Shown in pieces: positions 1-6,655 of a DNA stretch of 8,918 nt (its first letter is position 1; the number at the start of each line of letters is the position of its first letter). The notes under the pieces are model-generated. The model saw only the letters and a list, made by a program, of their open reading frames with translations, did not search any database and was not told where the DNA came from. The DNA is taken from the IMG/VR virus record IMGVR_UViG_2534682329_000008; one strand, written 5' to 3'. Source of the stretch: a virus. Taxonomy: Duplodnaviria; Heunggongvirae; Uroviricota; Caudoviricetes. The translations under genes were made by a program, and so were the position numbers.

Positions 1-336
1 CGCTGGCTGTTTTACGCGTATGACAGGATACGGAGGACAGTTGTGGCGTACGTTTTCGGTGAACGCACTCTGGCCACACTGGAGCGTCTTCTGAGCCTGC
101 TGTCGGCCTTTGAGGTCGTGGTATGGATGACGGATGGCTGGCCGCTGTATGAATCACGCCTGAAGGGAAAGCTGCACGTTATCAGCAAGCGTTACACTCA
201 GCGCATTGAGCGACATAATCTGAATCTGAGACAACATCTGGCAAGGCTGGGACGGAAGTCGCTGTCGTTCTCAAAATCGGTGGAGCTGCATGACAAGGTC
301 ATCGGGCATTATCTGAACATAAAACACTATCAGTAA
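1..336 (+). CDS. insB: IS1 transposase InsB, C-terminal part (5' end truncated by the window edge)
   Basis: Open frame from nt 1 with no in-frame start needed; the ORF-track start at 43 is only an internal GTG. Protein matches the IS1 InsB C-terminus from memory; stop TAA at 334-336. Confidence 0.85.
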
Positions 337-351
337 GTTGGAGTCACTACC
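1..351 (+). mobile_element. IS1 insertion sequence, right-hand ~350 bp (left part lies outside the window)
   Basis: Frame from position 1 translates to the InsB C-terminal region (…RWLFYAYD…VFGERT…[69 protein letters not shown]). The sequence then ends in the characteristic IS1 terminus …AAGTTGGAGTCACTACC at ~340-351. Junction position is uncertain by 1-2 bp. Confidence 0.9.
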
Positions 352-829
352 GTTTTTTCTTCCATGATAATTTAACCCGACTTGACTTTATCTCGCTTTC
401 TTCATTTGCCCTTTGTGCTATAAGTATGGCTTTTATTAATGAATATGGCTCATTCAAAGAGTCAATATTATAGACTGTATTGTCGCAAAGAGTTATAACA
501 TCAATACCGTGATTCAAAATCAATTTCAGACGTTCAATCGCTTCACCGACTTTTTCTCTTGAAAGTCTGTCCAGACTTTCAACTAACAATGTAGTTCCTG
601 GCAATATATAACCATGCTCTATAGCATCTAAAAATTCCGAAAAAGCTCCTGATTGTGCATGCTTTCCTTTGAATGCACTTAATCCTAAATCTTCATATGT
701 TATGGTATCAAGATAATAATCACTATTTACCTTTAACCATTCAGCAATAAGTCTTCTCTGTCGGTTTAATGAGTCGCCAGACATCTGACCTGGTGATGAA
801 AATCGCATATATGCTATGGCTTTTTTCAT
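352..829 (-). pseudogene. ybcK: Large serine recombinase (YbcK-like, DLP12 prophage recombinase), 3'-truncated by the IS1 insertion; only the ~160-aa N-terminal resolvase-type catalytic domain remains
   Basis: Translation MKKAIAYMRFSSPGQMSGDSLNRQRR… is a typical serine-recombinase N-terminus (catalytic Ser in the RFSS motif). The frame runs straight into the IS1 terminus and stops at 347-349 inside IS1. From memory the intact K-12 homologue is ~500 aa. The region is AT-rich. Confidence 0.8.
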
Positions 830-1014
830 GGTGACACCTGCTAACGTATGCTTTTATAAACCTTAGTGGTGGGATATAATTTTTGTTTATTTTTTATTTA
901 AAAAGACAATTAAGGTCACATTATCTTGAATATACAACAATAATCGTATTGCAATTTTCTTACGCCATAATCTTGAAAGCACAAAAGAATACATAAAAAA
1001 TAAAGACATTAACA

Positions 1015-1053
1015 AAAAGCATAAAACGAGGCTCATATAAATATAAGAGCCTC
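1015..1053 (-). terminator. Putative intrinsic terminator downstream of emrE
   Basis: Inverted repeat GAGGCTC (1028-1034) / GAGCCTC (1047-1053) with a 12-nt loop, followed on the minus strand by a U-rich tract (GUUUUAUGCUUUUU). The loop is long, so strength is uncertain. Confidence 0.4.
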
Positions 1054-1083
1054 CATATTTTAGTCGTTTAGAAACAAATTATT

Positions 1084-1416
1084 TTAATGTGGTGTGCTTC
1101 GTGACAATAAATTAATAATCAACACACCGGCACAAATCAACATCATGCCTATAATGGCTGGCAGGTCCAGCCGTTGGCCGAAAAATCCCCATGACAGTAA
1201 GCTAATCAGGACAATACCGACTCCTGACCAGATAGCATAAGCAATCCCTGTAGGAATATAAGCCAGCGTCTGAGCTAATAACCAGAATGATGCACAATAA
1301 CAAATAATTGTACCAACAGATGGCCATAACCGTGTAAAACCTTCTGAAAACTTCATTAAGGTTGTACCAATGACCTCTGCAAGTATTGCACCACCAAGAT
1401 AAATATAAGGGTTCAT
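1084..1416 (-). CDS. emrE: Small multidrug resistance (SMR) efflux transporter EmrE, 110 aa
   Basis: Translation from the internal ATG (1416) is MNPYIYLGGAILAEVIGTTLMKFSEGF…LLSRSTPH, matching E. coli EmrE from memory, with four predicted TM helices and the conserved Glu14 (…AILAEVIG…). SD AGGAAA lies ~6 nt upstream. The ORF-track start at 1470 is an unsupported N-terminal extension. Confidence 0.95.
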   Translation of the reverse strand: MNPYIYLGGAILAEVIGTTLMKFSEGFTRLWPSVGTIICYCASFWLLAQTLAYIPTGIAYAIWSGVGIVLISLLSWGFFGQRLDLPAIIGMMLICAGVLIINLLSRSTPH

Positions 1417-1483
1417 AGCATATTCTTTCCTGTTCAAACTGGAGAGAATTGTACTACAGTTTGAACTCAACTCACCTGTTTCA

Positions 1484-1786: not shown

Positions 1787-2484
1787 ACACTTGCTCCTTT
1801 CAGTCCGAACTTAGCTTTAATTTCTGCGATCTTCGCCAGAGCCTGTGCACGATTTAGAGGTCTACCGCCCATAACAGGAAGTTGTTTTACTGGTTCAGGT
1901 ATCGTCTCACCACGGTTAATTCGCGCTGTCATACAGGTCAGTTCATCGGCAGCCTTGCGCCGTAATTCCGCGTCAGTCAGCGCATTGGCCCGCATGTTCT
2001 GGTACAAGTTGGTAACCAACCAGTAGTGCGCGTTTGATTTCCATGGATAAGACTCTGCGTCCGGATACAGGCCACGCTTCCGGCAATACTCGTAAACCAT
2101 ATCAACCAGCTCGCTGGCGTTTGGCAGCCCGGCGGTAACGGATGTTTCTTCCCGGCACCAGGCAACAAACTGCCCGGGTGATGGCAGGAATGGTCGATTC
2201 TGCCGACGGGCTACGCGCATTCCTGCGTTAACCTGTTCCATTGTGGTGATCCCGTTTTCCCGGAAAGCCAGCACCCACTGGCGGCGGATTTCGTTCAGTT
2301 CGTTCTGGTCCCGGTTAGCCAGGCTCGCCGGGAAAGTTGCCAGTAACTGGCTGAACACACCATTGATGATCTGCGCTACCAGCTGTACCTGCGGCTTTTC
2401 GTCGTACTGTTCCGGCATGTTATTGGCGATCCGACGCATCTGCTCACGGTCAAAGTTAACCATCTGTGCGGCGATGTTTTTCAT
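1783..2484 (-). CDS. P: Replication protein P (DnaB helicase loader), 233 aa
   Basis: MKNIAAQMVNFDREQMRRIANNMPEQYDEKPQVQ…AEIKAKFGLKGASV is near-identical to lambda P from memory, with the same length. Translationally coupled to O (ATGA overlap at 2481-2484). Confidence 0.95.
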   Translation of the reverse strand: MKNIAAQMVNFDREQMRRIANNMPEQYDEKPQVQLVAQIINGVFSQLLATFPASLANRDQNELNEIRRQWVLAFRENGITTMEQVNAGMRVARRQNRPFLPSPGQFVAWCREETSVTAGLPNASELVDMVYEYCRKRGLYPDAESYPWKSNAHYWLVTNLYQNMRANALTDAELRRKAADELTCMTARINRGETIPEPVKQLPVMGGRPLNRAQALAKIAEIKAKFGLKGASV

Positions 2485-3410
2485 AAATCCACCCCATAAA
2501 TCCAGTCAGTGTTTGTCAGGTCGAGTTTTGGTTTGCCGGATGTCACGCCAGCCTGTTGCTTGTTTCGGTTGATTTCGAGCTGGGTCCACTTGTCGCGGAG
2601 TTTGGCCGGACTCAGCACGTTACCGGACCAGAAGTTGTCCTGGCATGCCCAGCGGAACAGCACGCACATGTCGCGGTGGTTACGTCCGTCACGTTCACGC
2701 ATCAGGCGGATATCGTTAGCCCACCCTGCAAAATTCGGTTTTCTGGCTGATGGCGCGATGGTCTTCACCATGTCAAACATCCACTCTGCGGCGGTCAGGT
2801 CTTCTGCTGTCCCCCACTTGCTGCCACTCTGAATTGCAGCATCCGGTTTCACCACAGGAAGGTCGTTTTCTGGCTGGTCAGAGGATTCGCCAGAATTCTC
2901 GGACGAAAAAGGTTTTATATTGTCTTTTGTTAGTTTGTCTTTTGTGTTTACCTGATTCGGGTAAACGCCTTTACCTGATTTGGGTAAACTTTTCTTACCT
3001 GATTCAGGTAAATTTACCTCTTTCAGGTAAACTTTATTTTTCTTACCTGATTCGGGTAATGTTGACCATTCACTGACCACATTATTAATGCCGATATTTC
3101 GCCCGCTCTGAATAAGAATCCCACGCTTTACCAGAACGCTTTTTGCAGCAGAACACTTGTGCGGCAATATCCCGGTCAATTCGGAAAGTTGCTCGTTGCT
3201 CACCCAATCCAGTCTTTTATTAAAGCCATATGTTTTGCGCATGACAGCCAGGAAGACCAGAAGCTGGTGCTGTGTTAATCCGGCCAGCATCACAGCTTCC
3301 AGCAACTCATTTGCAATGCGCGTATAACCATCATCGAGATCTGCCACGCGCGGCTCCTTTTGTGCCGCATCCGGCACTGGAAAATTGAATATCTCAGCAG
3401 TGTTTGCCAT
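2481..3410 (-). CDS. O: Replication initiator protein O (hybrid: non-lambda N-terminal iteron-binding domain, lambda-type C-terminal P-interaction domain)
   Basis: C-terminal ~110 aa (…EDLTAAEWMFDMVKTIAPSARKPNFAGWANDIRLMRERDGRNHRDMCVLFRWACQDNFWSGNVLSPAKLRDKWTQLEINRNKQQAGV…LDLTNTDWIYGVDL) match lambda O from memory. The N-terminal domain is only lambda-like in outline (ADLDDGY…RKTYGFNK). Start chosen at ATG 3410, preceded by a strong SD GGGAGGAATT; the longer track ORF to 3500 is judged an artefact. Iterons lie inside the gene. Confidence 0.9.
   Translation of the reverse strand: MANTAEIFNFPVPDAAQKEPRVADLDDGYTRIANELLEAVMLAGLTQHQLLVFLAVMRKTYGFNKRLDWVSNEQLSELTGILPHKCSAAKSVLVKRGILIQSGRNIGINNVVSEWSTLPESGKKNKVYLKEVNLPESGKKSLPKSGKGVYPNQVNTKDKLTKDNIKPFSSENSGESSDQPENDLPVVKPDAAIQSGSKWGTAEDLTAAEWMFDMVKTIAPSARKPNFAGWANDIRLMRERDGRNHRDMCVLFRWACQDNFWSGNVLSPAKLRDKWTQLEINRNKQQAGVTSGKPKLDLTNTDWIYGVDL
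2921..3070 (-). repeat. Origin of replication (ori-lambda type): five ~18-bp iterons plus an adjacent AT-rich region, embedded in the O coding sequence
   Basis: Five copies of the dyad TTACCTGATTCGGGTAA and variants at ~2958-2976, 2981-2999, 3005-3022, 3024-3042 and 3053-3070. In the O direction they are followed by the AT-rich tract 2921-2957 (GGTTTTATATTGTCTTTTGTTAGTTTGTCTTTTGTG). They encode the repetitive peptide …LPESGKK…LPESGKKSLPKSGK…. Confidence 0.8.
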
Positions 3411-3496
3411 AATTCCTCCCGCAATGAGTGTGTTACGATTTGCACCTGAAAGTCGGTTCTGTTCGCGCAGACCGGCTTTCGCCATTTCCGAACCTG

Positions 3497-4042
3497 TCAT
3501 ATTGCCCCCAGCATGGTGGTGACCATCGCCATCAGTGGACCAGCCAAATCCGGGTCCACACGAAACATCGACACAATGCCTTCACTCATCTCCTTCAGTT
3601 TCTGGTGGCGTGGTGCGTTGAGAATGACAGCCTGTTTTGCCTCACTGAGTTCCTTTTCCATTTCAGCCAGCCGAGCCATGTAGCTATCCTGCTCAACCAG
3701 GTGGCCGCGATATTCCAGCGGTAGTACCGCCAGAATTGCCGGGGTCAGTTCACGCACGTTATTTCGGTATTTTTCAGAATCGAATTTGTTATCGAGGAAG
3801 CGGAACAGCTTCTGGCGTGCACGGCTGACATCATCAGGGAAATCGATGGTGCCGCCGCCCTGCTCCCGATACTCATTCACAATGAGTGCGGCAACAACAT
3901 CCTGATTATCTGCAGCCGACCAGGCGCGAACGGCATCACGGATTTTTTCGTGGCCTGGCGCCTGTTTTGTTTGAGAACGATTTATCACCGCAGTCGGGCT
4001 AAATCCGCTAGTCTGTTGGTATGTAAGTGGTTGCATAGTCAT
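3497..4042 (-). CDS. Hypothetical protein in the cII position, downstream of cro; YdaT-like (my assignment is tentative)
   Basis: 181-aa ORF with no recognisable similarity to lambda CII. Its position between the cro-like gene and O, together with a YdaS-type Cro, is the arrangement seen with YdaT-family proteins in Rac-like prophages. Family assignment is from memory of the architecture only. Confidence 0.55.
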   Translation of the reverse strand: MTMQPLTYQQTSGFSPTAVINRSQTKQAPGHEKIRDAVRAWSAADNQDVVAALIVNEYREQGGGTIDFPDDVSRARQKLFRFLDNKFDSEKYRNNVRELTPAILAVLPLEYRGHLVEQDSYMARLAEMEKELSEAKQAVILNAPRHQKLKEMSEGIVSMFRVDPDLAGPLMAMVTTMLGAI

Positions 4043-4300: not shown

Positions 4301-4404
4301 TTCCTATTGGTATTGCAATGAATAAATAATAGCAATACGTATTAATCCAAGCAATAGCAAAACGTGTTTTGACCATCAATACGCAAGCGTATAAATTAAA
4401 ACTT
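4301..4404. promoter_or_regulatory. OR-like divergent promoter/operator region: PR-like promoter (minus strand) for cro and PRM-like promoter (plus strand) giving a near-leaderless cI mRNA
   Basis: Minus strand: -35 TTGCTT (4349-4354), 17-bp spacer, -10 TATTAT (4326-4331). Plus strand: -35 TTGACC (4369-4374), 15-16 bp spacer, -10 TATAAA/ATAAAT (4390-4396), placing +1 within a few nt of the cI ATG at 4405, which has no SD. The 8-mer AATAGCAA occurs at 4328-4335 and 4353-4360, and ATTGCAAT at 4312-4319. Confidence 0.55.
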
Positions 4405-5097
4405 ATGAAAAAAGAAACTCTTGCTGATCGCTTAAACCTAGCGATGGAACAATCTGGAATGTCTCAAGGCGCTCTTGCAAAGGCGTCTGGCGTAGCTCAA
4501 CCCACAATCTGGAGACTGACAAGCGGCAACGCTCGCGGCTCAACAAAAATTGTTGAAATAGCTAATGCATTGGGTGTTCGAACAGAATGGCTCTCATCAG
4601 GCATAGGCCCGATGAGAAATGACGGTCAACAATCAGGGAAGCCTGCTGTCAGCCATTCAAAATACTTCAAGATTGACGTTCTTGATATAGAAGTGAGTGC
4701 CGGGCCGGGAGTCATCAACCGTGAGTTTGTAGAAGTTCTACGCTCGGTTGAGTACTCGTTTGACGATGCTCGTCACATGTTCGATGGTAGGAAGGCAGAA
4801 AATATCCGCATCATTAACGTACGCGGTGACAGCATGTCAGGAACGATCGAACCAGGTGATCTGCTGTTCGTTGATATCACGGTTAAATCTTTCGACGGTG
4901 ATGGTATCTATGCGTTTCTGTATGACGACACCGCCCATGTAAAGCGCCTGCAAATGATGAAGGATAAGCTACTGGTTATCTCTGATAACAAGAGCTACTC
5001 ACCGTGGGACCCGATCGAGAAAGACGAGATGAACCGGGTATTCATATTCGGTAAGGTTATTGGGAGCATGCCGCAGACGTACAGAAAACACGGATAA
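4405..5097 (+). CDS. cI: cI-like prophage repressor: N-terminal XRE-type HTH plus C-terminal LexA/S24 autopeptidase domain
   Basis: HTH …SQGALAKASGVAQPTIWRLTSG…; a candidate Ala-Gly cleavage site in the linker (EVSAGPG); S24 catalytic motifs …VRGDSMSGTIEPGDLLFVD… (Ser nucleophile) and …AHVKRL… (Lys). Start placed at ATG 4405 (MKKETLADRL…); the track start at 4369 is a TTG that coincides with the promoter -35. Confidence 0.85.
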   Translation: MKKETLADRLNLAMEQSGMSQGALAKASGVAQPTIWRLTSGNARGSTKIVEIANALGVRTEWLSSGIGPMRNDGQQSGKPAVSHSKYFKIDVLDIEVSAGPGVINREFVEVLRSVEYSFDDARHMFDGRKAENIRIINVRGDSMSGTIEPGDLLFVDITVKSFDGDGIYAFLYDDTAHVKRLQMMKDKLLVISDNKSYSPWDPIEKDEMNRVFIFGKVIGSMPQTYRKHG

Positions 5098-5179
5098 TCA
5101 GCCGCGTGTTGATGAGGCTTTTGGGTAATACGCTGAAGAAAATACCTTATAAAAAATAACATTACGGGAAAGGCAAAAA

Positions 5180-5443
5180 ATGAGTAATAAAACACTTGTT
5201 AAAAAATCAAATAACTGTGTCGATGCATACGCCGACGCGTTTGGCTACTCTTCGTTTGGTGACGGCTCTCAGCGCCTAGGTTCAATTTCTTTTTTTCATA
5301 ATGTAACTGAATGGCCTGTTGATGAAAGTGACGATGTTGAGAACATAAAGTACAACATTGCAACCATTAGAATGCCCGAAGAATTGATGCTTAAATTGGC
5401 TGACTTCATTCGCGACCAGCATGACAAAGCTAAAACAAACTAA
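5180..5443 (+). CDS. Hypothetical 87-aa protein, first gene of an immunity-region accessory cassette (moron)
   Basis: ATG with SD (GGGAAAGG) ~6 nt upstream. Markedly AT-rich relative to flanking phage genes. Co-oriented downstream of cI. No family recognised; the C-terminal segment …IATIRMPEELMLKLADFIRDQ… has a beta-strand/helix pattern faintly reminiscent of a ribbon-helix-helix, but is too short to call. Confidence 0.5.
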   Translation: MSNKTLVKKSNNCVDAYADAFGYSSFGDGSQRLGSISFFHNVTEWPVDESDDVENIKYNIATIRMPEELMLKLADFIRDQHDKAKTN

Positions 5444-5455
5444 TCGTAATTAATT

Positions 5456-5899
5456 ATGAAACACGATTATTACGAAGCTCCAAACCTAAATGATAAAATT
5501 GCAAAGGCGGCAAAATCATTTTGTTTGCACTCCAGTGCGTCTTCCCAGCTAGCAGGTATATCTGGAAAAAGATGGGACATGCTACAATCAAGTGGTAGCA
5601 GTGGGTCTGGGAGTGATAACATGCCTGAAAAAGTTGCAAAACTGGAGTCCGATGTTGCTCATATCAAACGAGACGTTGATGAACTTAAAACAGACGTTAA
5701 AGCTATCGACAAAAATATGATAACTATTCTTGCACGTCTGGACTCTATAAAAGAATCCTTAACAAACAAGCCATCAAGTGATGCTGTCGATAGAAAGATT
5801 TCAGACGCAAAGCTTGCGGTATTGCTTGGTGTTCCAGCAATCATCGCTGCAGGAACAGGACTTTATAAGCTATCAATGTACTTTTTCTTTAGTGCTTAA
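5456..5899 (+). CDS. Hypothetical coiled-coil protein with a C-terminal transmembrane anchor (XhlA-like architecture), 147 aa (or 92 aa if translated from the internal ATG at 5621)
   Basis: Heptad-like charged coiled-coil segment (KLESDVAHIKRDVDELKTDVKAIDKNMITILARLDSIKESL), then the hydrophobic stretch LAVLLGVPAIIAAGTGLYKL near the C-terminus. The first ATG at 5456 has no SD, whereas the internal in-frame ATG at 5621 is preceded by GGAG at 5609-5612. AT-rich. Confidence 0.55.
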   Translation: MKHDYYEAPNLNDKIAKAAKSFCLHSSASSQLAGISGKRWDMLQSSGSSGSGSDNMPEKVAKLESDVAHIKRDVDELKTDVKAIDKNMITILARLDSIKESLTNKPSSDAVDRKISDAKLAVLLGVPAIIAAGTGLYKLSMYFFFSA

Positions 5900-5974
5900 G
5901 AAAATGCTCGCACCCTTGCATTAGGTAAAGCGATTTTTCATTCCCCATTACCCTCGCTCTTAACCAATCATCTA

Positions 5975-6003
5975 AACCCGGCCACCGTGCCGGGTTTTCT
6001 TTT
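5975..6003 (+). terminator. Rho-independent terminator ending the cI-orf87-orf147 operon (t_imm analogue)
   Basis: Stem CCCGGC (5977-5982) / GCCGGG (5989-5994), 6-nt loop, followed by TTTTCTTTT (5995-6003). Confidence 0.75.
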
Positions 6004-6089: not shown

Positions 6090-6178
6090 TTTTTGCTATC
6101 AAACATTTAATATCAAAACACATCAACTAATAGCAACAAGTATTGATATCACCAATAGCAATAGCTATTATCACCATA
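6090..6178 (+). promoter_or_regulatory. OL/PL-like operator-promoter driving the rightward (plus-strand) early operon towards gam-bet-exo
   Basis: -35 TTGATA (6143-6148), 17-bp spacer, -10 TATTAT (6166-6171). The same AATAGCAA 8-mer as in the OR region occurs at 6129-6136 and 6154-6161, the latter inside the spacer, with a 7/8 inverted copy TTGCTATC at 6093-6100. Confidence 0.55.
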
Positions 6179-6364
6179 TCGCAACAACACAACGATACGG
6201 CAACCACCTGATTCACCGTTGCGATGACCGTTTAGATCCGCAGCTTGAATTTCAGCAGGCTTCGGGGAGTGCGAGGGGTGAAACGGACGCGTGAACGTCG
6301 GTGTGACCAGCTGAAATTAACTCAACATTTCATACCTCAGTCGCTTCAACGAGGCGGCTTAGTT

Positions 6365-6655
6365 ATGACAACCGGCGGCCATCCACCGCCTGAATATGCG
6401 CAGAAGTCTCTATATGTTCAGCAGCCCAGCTTACGGGCAGGAGTTTTTATGGTTCATCAACATTACGGAACGCAGACCGTTAATCGCGGTGCGGTCATGC
6501 CAGGCATGCTGGTCAAACACAAAGATGGTACCTGGACTGCATCAGCTAATTTACGCGGACGGCTTTATCTGCATCGCGGCATCGAGCGCACTTATACCCG
6601 TGATTTGCTCGTGGAAGTTTTTCTCGACGGACGCGGTAACGGCCTCAATCACTAA
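6365..6655 (+). CDS. Hypothetical 96-aa protein between PL and gam (kil/cIII position)
   Basis: ATG 6365 with SD GAGG ~10 nt upstream; stop TAA 6653-6655. No similarity to lambda N, cIII or Kil that I can recognise. The track ORF from a TTG at 6245 is a longer alternative with no SD. Confidence 0.4.

Follow-up and report, generated by a model that had tools for sequence, protein, structure and literature searches.

The 8,918-nucleotide (nt) stretch of viral DNA held in IMG/VR as record IMGVR_UViG_2534682329_000008 (the window) comprises the immunity and early region of a lambdoid prophage of E. coli. Downstream of its cI-type repressor gene lie two small genes, here called A and B. Gene B contains two in-frame start codons, at positions 5456 and 5621, that would yield products of 147 and 92 amino acids (aa). 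Comparison with its relatives indicates that gene B is likely a nested, in-frame dual-start gene from which both the long and the short product are made. Two in-frame starts, each with a plausible route of initiation, are conserved throughout the family. The N-terminal extension is kept as coding sequence, and the internal signals are kept at the synonymous level. Judged from these sequences, selection across the family maintains the two initiation signals as well as the two coding segments, and the type of N-terminal tail tracks the family of gene A. A preliminary description, made from the window alone, had suggested that one gene may give two isoforms. The comparative evidence, namely a conserved internal start with its ribosome-binding sequence and an open, constrained extension, supports this suggestion.

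Two starts in one reading frame

The TAA stop codon of gene A (5441-5443) is followed by 12 nt (tcgtaattaatt) and then by ATG 5456. The frame opens only at 5450, so this ATG is the earliest possible start. The 20 nt upstream of it hold no Shine-Dalgarno (SD) sequence, and the best duplex with the 3' end of 16S rRNA has an energy of +0.6 kcal/mol, in agreement with the preliminary description of an SD-less start 12 nt past the upstream stop. The in-frame ATG 5621, in contrast, stands 7 nt (tgataac) after GGGAG at 5609-5613, with a duplex energy of -6.8 kcal/mol. This is comparable to the values for kil, gam, bet, and exo of the window (-6.9 to -7.3 kcal/mol). The internal SD and the two product lengths are therefore as originally read, and so is the Gly/Ser tract SSGSSGSGS, which occupies residues 45-53 of the long product. 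The tract looks like a flexible linker, and its codons also spell the SD. RefSeq gives the long form in all E. coli records inspected, and several gene callers give the short form (P0010, P0014, P0017). Met42 (ATG 5579) was considered as a third in-frame start and rejected, as it has no usable SD and the sequence upstream of it is not conserved. RNA structure that could mask the internal SD was not detected, the fold of positions 5560-5660 being no better than that of shuffled sequences (z = -0.17).

Comparison at the codon level can show whether an internal ribosome-binding site is under selection or whether a linker only resembles one. Here the information came from a bias toward GGA or GGG at one particular Gly codon and from the use of GTG or TTG where Met has been lost. 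Family DNA was gathered from annotated genomes, GTDB genomes, viral contigs, and assemblies. Among 37 unique open reading frames (ORFs) with 24 distinct upstream contexts, ATG or GTG stands at the position aligned with 5621, and a start codon (ATG, GTG, or TTG) with an SD-type core occupies the internal position in every homologue examined. Three independent lineages have no Met at this position. Two of them possess Val encoded by GTG (the L003 type and P0055/L089), and the third, the distant P0178/L124, possesses Leu encoded by TTG. Codon -4 encodes Gly in 24/24 contexts, as GGA in 15, GGG in seven, and GGT in two, and with GGA or GGG the region reads GGAGG or a close variant such as GGGAG. 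The Gly codons from -9 to -6 are instead GGT or GGC in 42 of 53 cases, a difference from the bias at codon -4 with a Fisher p of 3.4e-9. Taking one sequence per extension type, that is, per lineage, the comparison becomes 13/13 versus 32/69 (p = 1.7e-4). Moreover, the GGAG or GGGG core begins at -12 or -11 in 13 of 15 lineage representatives, and duplexes of the internal start with the 16S 3' end range from -6.8 to -12.1 kcal/mol across the family. A linker needs glycine, not a given Gly codon at a fixed distance from a start, so these patterns argue for selection on a ribosome-binding site.

The same patterns bear on the view that only the 147-aa protein is made. The Gly/Ser tract would then be a pure linker, the Met would have a structural role where the helix begins, and the Gly codons would produce the SD-like sequence incidentally. 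This view draws on the constant RefSeq annotation of the long form, on purifying selection in the extension, on a Gly tract that exceeds what an SD requires, and on the fact that SD-like sequences arise by chance before internal ATGs. It is nevertheless unlikely. A linker has no need of GGA or GGG at codon -4 while the neighboring Gly codons are GGT or GGC, and all three Met replacements are start codons (GTG, GTG, and TTG) rather than any of the other three Val or five Leu codons. In addition, the heptad spacing, as read from the sequence, puts Leu +1 and not Met in a core position.

Two further explanations accept the site but not initiation at it. It is very improbable that the SD-like sequence serves to pause elongating ribosomes at the domain boundary, for example for the binding of protein A or for membrane targeting, with no initiation. 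Although the motif lies exactly at the junction of tail and coiled coil, a pause leaves unexplained the invariant start codon 7 nt downstream and the GTG and TTG codons of the lineages without Met. SD-induced pausing in E. coli is also disputed. Formation of the short form by cleavage, with the Gly tract as a proteolytic site of the double-glycine leader type, is hardly credible. At none of the loci does the cassette have a gene for a C39-peptidase ABC transporter or another protease beside it, the extensions share no leader consensus, and one or two variable residues separate GG from Met, even though Gly-Gly does precede the conserved module by a short distance in all members. The codon-level SD bias and the conservation of the start codon would likewise be left without explanation by cleavage.

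Several observations weigh against the production of two isoforms. Among the genes of the window, 4 of 94 internal in-frame ATG or GTG codons reach -6.8 kcal/mol or lower, so the observation in a single sequence is not beyond chance and its significance comes from the comparative data only. The family sequences are related, and the Fisher tests therefore overstate independence and give optimistic p-values. In the distant member L126, GGAGG stands just 1 nt from the ATG. The Gly tract, with four to seven Gly, is longer than an SD needs, which indicates that selection for a linker also acts at the protein level, and this selection could contribute to the G-rich codons. Lastly, a literature search by locus tags and accessions found no mention of gene B and no ribosome profiling or proteomics.

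The N-terminal extension and its partner gene

The N-terminal extension of the long form has the properties of a coding sequence. Its frame contains no stops in 880 codons from 18 representatives, compared with 40 and 88 in the other two frames. At every locus, no stop interrupts the frame between the internal start and the end of the upstream gene, even where databases annotate only a form of 90-99 aa. For seven divergent homologues from the window's subfamily, the ratio of nonsynonymous to synonymous substitution rates (dN/dS) is 0.03-0.59 in the 55 extension codons, 0.05-0.31 in the C-terminal module, and 0.05-0.17 in gene A. By this measure, the extension is under purifying selection, which is weaker than that on the C-terminal module or gene A. 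The extension also contributes about 71 bits to the PHROG match. Additionally, at every locus the long start lies right next to the upstream gene's stop or overlaps it. The gap is 12 nt in the window, the P22-like phages have gaps of 2-8 nt or ATGA/TAATG overlaps, and distant members have overlaps of 4-17 nt. In other subfamilies, the long start also possesses an SD of its own.

Against this background, it is quite improbable that only the 92-aa protein matters and that the 55 upstream codons are an over-extended ORF or a functionless translated spacer. The absence of an SD at ATG 5456, the choice of the short form by several gene callers, and the O gene of the window, an example of how an ORF that contains a strong internal SD can be annotated too long, all lend themselves to that explanation. 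However, it is contradicted by the stop counts across 18 lineages, by dN/dS values below 1, by the contribution of the extension to the PHROG match, and by the correspondence between extension type and partner gene. The constant coupling of the long start to the gene A stop and its own SD in other subfamilies also stand against it. The preliminary description had proposed comparing the N-terminal 55 codons among homologues, and had named two patterns that would argue for a single product, namely homologues without the internal-start signal and homologues without the upstream region. Neither pattern was found, as the homologues retain both the internal signal and the extension, the latter conserved as protein (dN/dS 0.03-0.59).

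The preliminary description had further pointed to a helix-turn-helix (HTH)-like segment in the extension, which might make the long form a DNA-binding domain tethered to the membrane. This idea did not hold up. No HTH match was obtained from Pfam or NCBIfam (E <= 1), or from PHROGs. The segment in question, SSQLAGISGKRWDML, falls within residues 28-55, where the predicted local distance difference test (pLDDT) score of AlphaFold2 is below 50, and the only helix predicted in the extension is one of low confidence at residues 11-27. A DNA-binding extension was rejected on family-wide grounds as well. In place of the extension, other members carry at least eight unrelated sequences, which change with the upstream gene, a pattern that fits a partner-binding tail rather than a conserved domain that binds DNA.

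Homologues of B found in protein searches have a variable N-terminal extension of 31-83 residues that ends in a Gly-rich tract. The tract is followed by Met, a conserved helix (MLEARVAKLESDV..IK.DV.ELK), a KPS hinge, and the C-terminal hydrophobic helix, LAVLLGVPAIIAAGTGLY, which is strongly conserved family-wide. The AlphaFold2 model of B has a mean pLDDT of 59.5. In this model, the low-confidence helix is followed by disorder at residues 28-55, the long helix (56-103) starts precisely at residue 56, and a second helix (110-145) holds the hydrophobic stretch.

The extension and the C-terminal module occur in various combinations. Upstream partners belong to phrog_4231, phrog_12039, phrog_5893/5881, phrog_4293, or an unclassified 88-aa type, each with its own type of extension. 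The C-terminal module of gene B is joined to about ten extension types, the junction being the Gly tract and internal start, and one and the same extension type occurs with three or more different C-terminal modules. DNA similarity between the window and P22-like phages (UPF_BP1 and a prophage of E. coli E4; L001/L005) covers approximately 5152-5628, that is, gene A and the extension. As this similarity ends just after ATG 5621, the junction of the exchangeable modules coincides with the nested start. These patterns suggest that A and the tail of the long form of B are one functional unit, which probably forms a physical complex, and that the coiled-coil membrane part is a separate, constant unit. 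At locus L121, the same extension is fused to yet another C-terminal membrane module.

The cassette formed by A and B is located downstream of cI-type repressors and before kil in many loci. In P22-like phages, it is located downstream of mnt in immI, beside sieA or replacing it, and it occasionally occurs among tail genes (L013, L069, L088, and L089). The cassette moves between typical accessory-gene sites. The tail-region members have a partner of 119 or 153 aa, and the order there is the DUF6246 gene, A, B, and the tape-measure gene. In P22-like phages, mnt overlaps the cassette at its 3' end, and in the window the search for a promoter-like site between cI and A was negative. For these two reasons, the cassette is probably expressed together with the repressor in lysogens.

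A candidate internal promoter and the surrounding locus

Within the extension lies a 17-nt element, ATGCTACAATCAAGTGG, that does not vary among the divergent members of the window's subfamily (Table 1), whose synonymous sites are otherwise near saturation. Among 35 codons with an invariant amino acid, seven are invariant at the nucleotide level, and four of the seven are the consecutive Leu(CTA)-Gln-Ser-Ser codons of this element. The Leu codon CTA is rare. Exact matches to ATGCTACAATCAAGTGG in viral contigs fall within this gene type in 30 of 34 cases. The element contains TGCTACAAT (5580-5588), of the form TGnTACAAT, which resembles an extended -10 element and lies 32 nt before ATG 5621. A transcript that started about 7 nt downstream of TGCTACAAT would encode the short form only, and hypothetically TGCTACAAT may be an internal promoter for this form. 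Two results count against such a promoter. The extended -10 pattern TGNTANAAT is not enriched in the window (three found versus 1.6 expected), and no equivalent invariant element is conserved in other subfamilies. TGCTACAAT also has no good -35 element. An antisense promoter on the minus strand of the 17-mer was considered and rejected, since by eye there is no acceptable -10 at the right spacing. A second match resembling an extended -10, TGATAAAAT (5491-5499, plus strand), occurs inside the extension and is not conserved in homologues.

On the plus strand of the window, the order is the cI-type repressor gene, gene A, gene B, a terminator-like hairpin, a pL-like promoter, kil, gam, bet, and exo (Table 1). 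The minus strand carries P, O, a YdaT/cII-like gene, and a cro-like gene. Given this order from cI to the pL-like promoter, A and B occupy the place of lambda rexA-rexB. The hairpin is probably the end of the cI-A-B transcript, in a position like that of lambda T_IMM. The pL-like promoter match overlaps, within 6143-6200, repeated TATCACC motifs that resemble lambda operator half-sites, and this site is presumably pL/OL. Between it and kil (6449-6655) there is no recognisable N-like gene, and the longest ORF (6245-6655) is an in-frame upstream extension of kil. An Rfam scan of the whole window gave no match to an RNA element.

Table 1. Coordinates of the features of the cassette and its surroundings in the window
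Feature	Position	Strand	Remarks
cI-type repressor gene, first of the operon carrying the cassette	4405..5097	+	HTH_3 PF01381 and Peptidase_S24 PF00717 (Pfam); RefSeq (PGAP) start is 4405
Gene A, 87 aa, partner gene, phrog_4231	5180..5443	+	Always accompanies the MKHDYYEAPNL-type extension of gene B
Gene B, long ORF, 147 aa	5456..5899	+	phrog_3556, E = 1.7e-58; RefSeq form
N-terminal extension of gene B, 55 codons, long form only	5456..5620	+	
17-nt element ATGCTACAATCAAGTGG	5579..5595	+	Nucleotide-invariant in all divergent members of the window's subfamily
SD core GGGAG, Gly-Ser codons GGG AGT	5609..5613	+	Invariant among aligned homologues
Nested short ORF, 92 aa, coiled coil and membrane helix only	5621..5899	+	
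Predicted coiled-coil helix, residues 56-103	5621..5764	+	AlphaFold2 helix 56-103; Pfam and PDB matches are generic coiled coil only
C-terminal hydrophobic helix LAVLLGVPAIIAAGTGLY, residues 120-137, presumed membrane anchor	5813..5866	+	From sequence; inside AlphaFold2 helix 110-145
Intrinsic-terminator-like hairpin and T run	5974..5997	+	9-bp stem with 6 GC pairs, then TCTTTTG
pL-like promoter	6143..6171	+	TTGATA-17-TATTAT, 10/12 match, best in region

Other parts of the window were noted as well. A promoter-like sequence, TTGACC-17-TAAATT (4369-4397, plus strand), ends 7 nt 5' of the cI ATG 4405, which has no SD. With so short a distance, the cI mRNA may be leaderless; the lambda cI mRNA from P_RM is leaderless. 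In the O gene ORF (2481-3500, minus strand), the internal ATG 3410 is preceded by GGGAGGAATT, the strongest such site of the window at -10.3 kcal/mol. The product from ATG 3410 would begin with MANTAEIFNF, which resembles the beginning of lambda O (MTNTAKILNF). O as annotated, with 339 aa, is probably over-extended by 30 codons, unlike gene B with its coding extension.

Strain 2014C-3307 is 100% identical to the window across query positions 5100-6000, and the cassette is present in 205 of 5426 complete E. coli genomes, on the chromosome only, including O26:H11 11368 and O103 strains. The left end of the window (1-1470) holds an IS1 fragment (43-336), a truncated ORF resembling a serine recombinase (347-829), and emrE (1084-1416) beside ren and P, an arrangement like that of the DLP12-type prophage region of K-12. 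In the record of strain 2014C-3307, this side is occupied by a NACHT-domain gene and a truncated ren instead, which means that the window's left part derives from another strain arrangement.

Known systems and possible function of the cassette

Both genes fall into PHROGs families without an assigned function, phrog_3556 for B and phrog_4231 for A. Searches of Pfam, NCBIfam, and PADLOC with A and B yielded coiled-coil noise only. A sequence search of solved structures returned generic coiled coils for B and nothing for A. When the C-terminal module was compared by tblastn with 50,697 isolated phage genomes, only three weak partial hits were obtained, so no studied phage offers a lead. As gene B has no homology to SieB, RexA/B, holins, or XhlA, it represents a new, uncharacterised family with a known kind of gene organisation. 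The nearest precedents for its mechanism are P22 sieB/esc, lambda S107/S105, and lambda rexAB with P_LIT.

SieB is a membrane protein, and P22 sieB/esc resembles gene B in being a prophage-expressed accessory membrane-protein gene in the immunity region, where one frame gives, or in gene B probably gives, a full-length and an N-terminally truncated product. The two peptides encoded by the sieB frame are switched by the sas antisense RNA, and the truncated product modulates the full-length one (PMC7067206, PMC12197685). However, gene B has no SieB-family match (Pfam, NCBIfam, and PADLOC, E <= 1), and no counterpart of the antisense RNA is evident for it, with no Rfam match. Unlike sieB, it also possesses the partner gene A and a swappable N-terminal tail.

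Lambda rexA-rexB is similar to A-B in layout. Both are two-gene cassettes directly past cI, with transcription (probable for A-B) from the repressor promoter and a terminator before pL, and the second gene of each encodes a membrane protein. In addition, rexB has its own promoter, P_LIT, inside rexA (bioRxiv 10.1101/2021.04.19.439022). P_LIT parallels the candidate TGCTACAAT, but the latter lies inside gene B and would give a truncated protein, not the whole second gene. RexA and RexB have no homology to A or B (Pfam, PADLOC, and NCBIfam). Moreover, A and B are much smaller, and B possesses one C-terminal helix while RexB possesses several membrane-spanning helices.

The antiholin and holin of lambda, S107 and S105, arise from two in-frame starts in a gene for a small membrane protein, and the ratio of the isoforms is expected to set the activity. 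Gene B shares with such holins the two in-frame starts in a small phage membrane-protein gene and this expected effect of the isoform ratio. The holin starts, however, are 1-3 codons apart rather than 55, and gene B is part of a lysogenic operon and not a lysis cassette. Its only hydrophobic helix is C-terminal, and the one holin profile that it hit, phrog_10340 (holin/anti-holin, E = 0.075-0.14), is not a significant match. XhlA of prophage PBSX (PF10779), a 'haemolysin', resembles B in being small and in combining an N-terminal coiled coil with a membrane helix at the C-terminal end. The matches are weak: the XhlA profile gives E = 0.04-0.05 with gene B in Pfam, and phrog_1193 and phrog_937 (both 'hemolysin') give E = 1e-4 to 1e-3. 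The PF10779 score of 14.1-14.6 bits for gene B is far below the cut-off of 34.7. In contrast to gene B, XhlA is part of a lysis module, and it is not known to have a dual start or a partner gene. In T7 gene 4A/4B and the Tn5 transposase and inhibitor, an internal SD and start give a product that is missing about 55-63 N-terminal residues, and in Tn5 the short form, which is expressed from an internal promoter of its own, acts as an inhibitor of the long form. The proteins and functions of these two systems are unrelated to gene B, and they are precedents for the mechanism only.

A and B would constitute a two-gene accessory cassette that is transcribed together with the repressor gene of the prophage, the terminator at 5974-5997 being its end. 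The long form would most likely come from ribosomes that, having terminated at the stop of gene A, re-initiate 12 nt on at ATG 5456. The short form would result from independent initiation at GGGAG-7 nt-ATG 5621, and a transcript of its own from TGCTACAAT is possible. Because both forms share the cytoplasmic coiled coil and the C-terminal membrane helix, they should co-assemble. The mostly disordered N-terminal tail, carried by the long form only, would be an interchangeable part matched to protein A. As in P22 SieB/Esc and lambda S107/S105, the ratio of long to short form may tune a membrane-acting effector.

Accessory loci, among them rexAB and bstA, are known to occupy the interval between the repressor gene and N (PMC7067206), and sieA adjoins mnt (PMC10883804). 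The cassette sits at these prophage positions of the classic exclusion systems rexAB, sieA, and bstA, and its family has neither a Pfam model nor a recorded function. By analogy with these neighbors in genome position, the cassette may be a superinfection-exclusion or abortive-infection module for the lysogen. That role is reasonably inferred from position and architecture only, which speaks for caution, as do the profile searches, in which Pfam and NCBIfam returned no defence family, and in PADLOC-DB 2.0 B gave only weak coiled-coil noise (E >= 0.0037) and A no match.

A broader proposal is more tentative. It is conceivable, though doubtful, that the cassette belongs to a large, unnamed family of modular two-gene prophage systems for exclusion or abortive infection, found at rex and sieA positions and in tail regions. 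In these systems, an exchangeable sensor, consisting of A and the matching tail of B, would be mounted on a constant coiled-coil membrane effector. The Gly-tract junction would double as a ribosome-binding site, every member would co-produce the tail-less isoform, and the ratio of long to short form would act as a trigger or safety catch. The window's subfamily would then possibly make the tail-less isoform from its own internal promoter.

In conclusion, gene B is annotated with 147 aa in RefSeq and with 90-93 aa in many other gene calls, and the comparative evidence indicates that both are probably right. If the two isoforms are an effector and its regulator, the cassette would be a new and easily tested case of isoform-ratio control in phage-phage competition.

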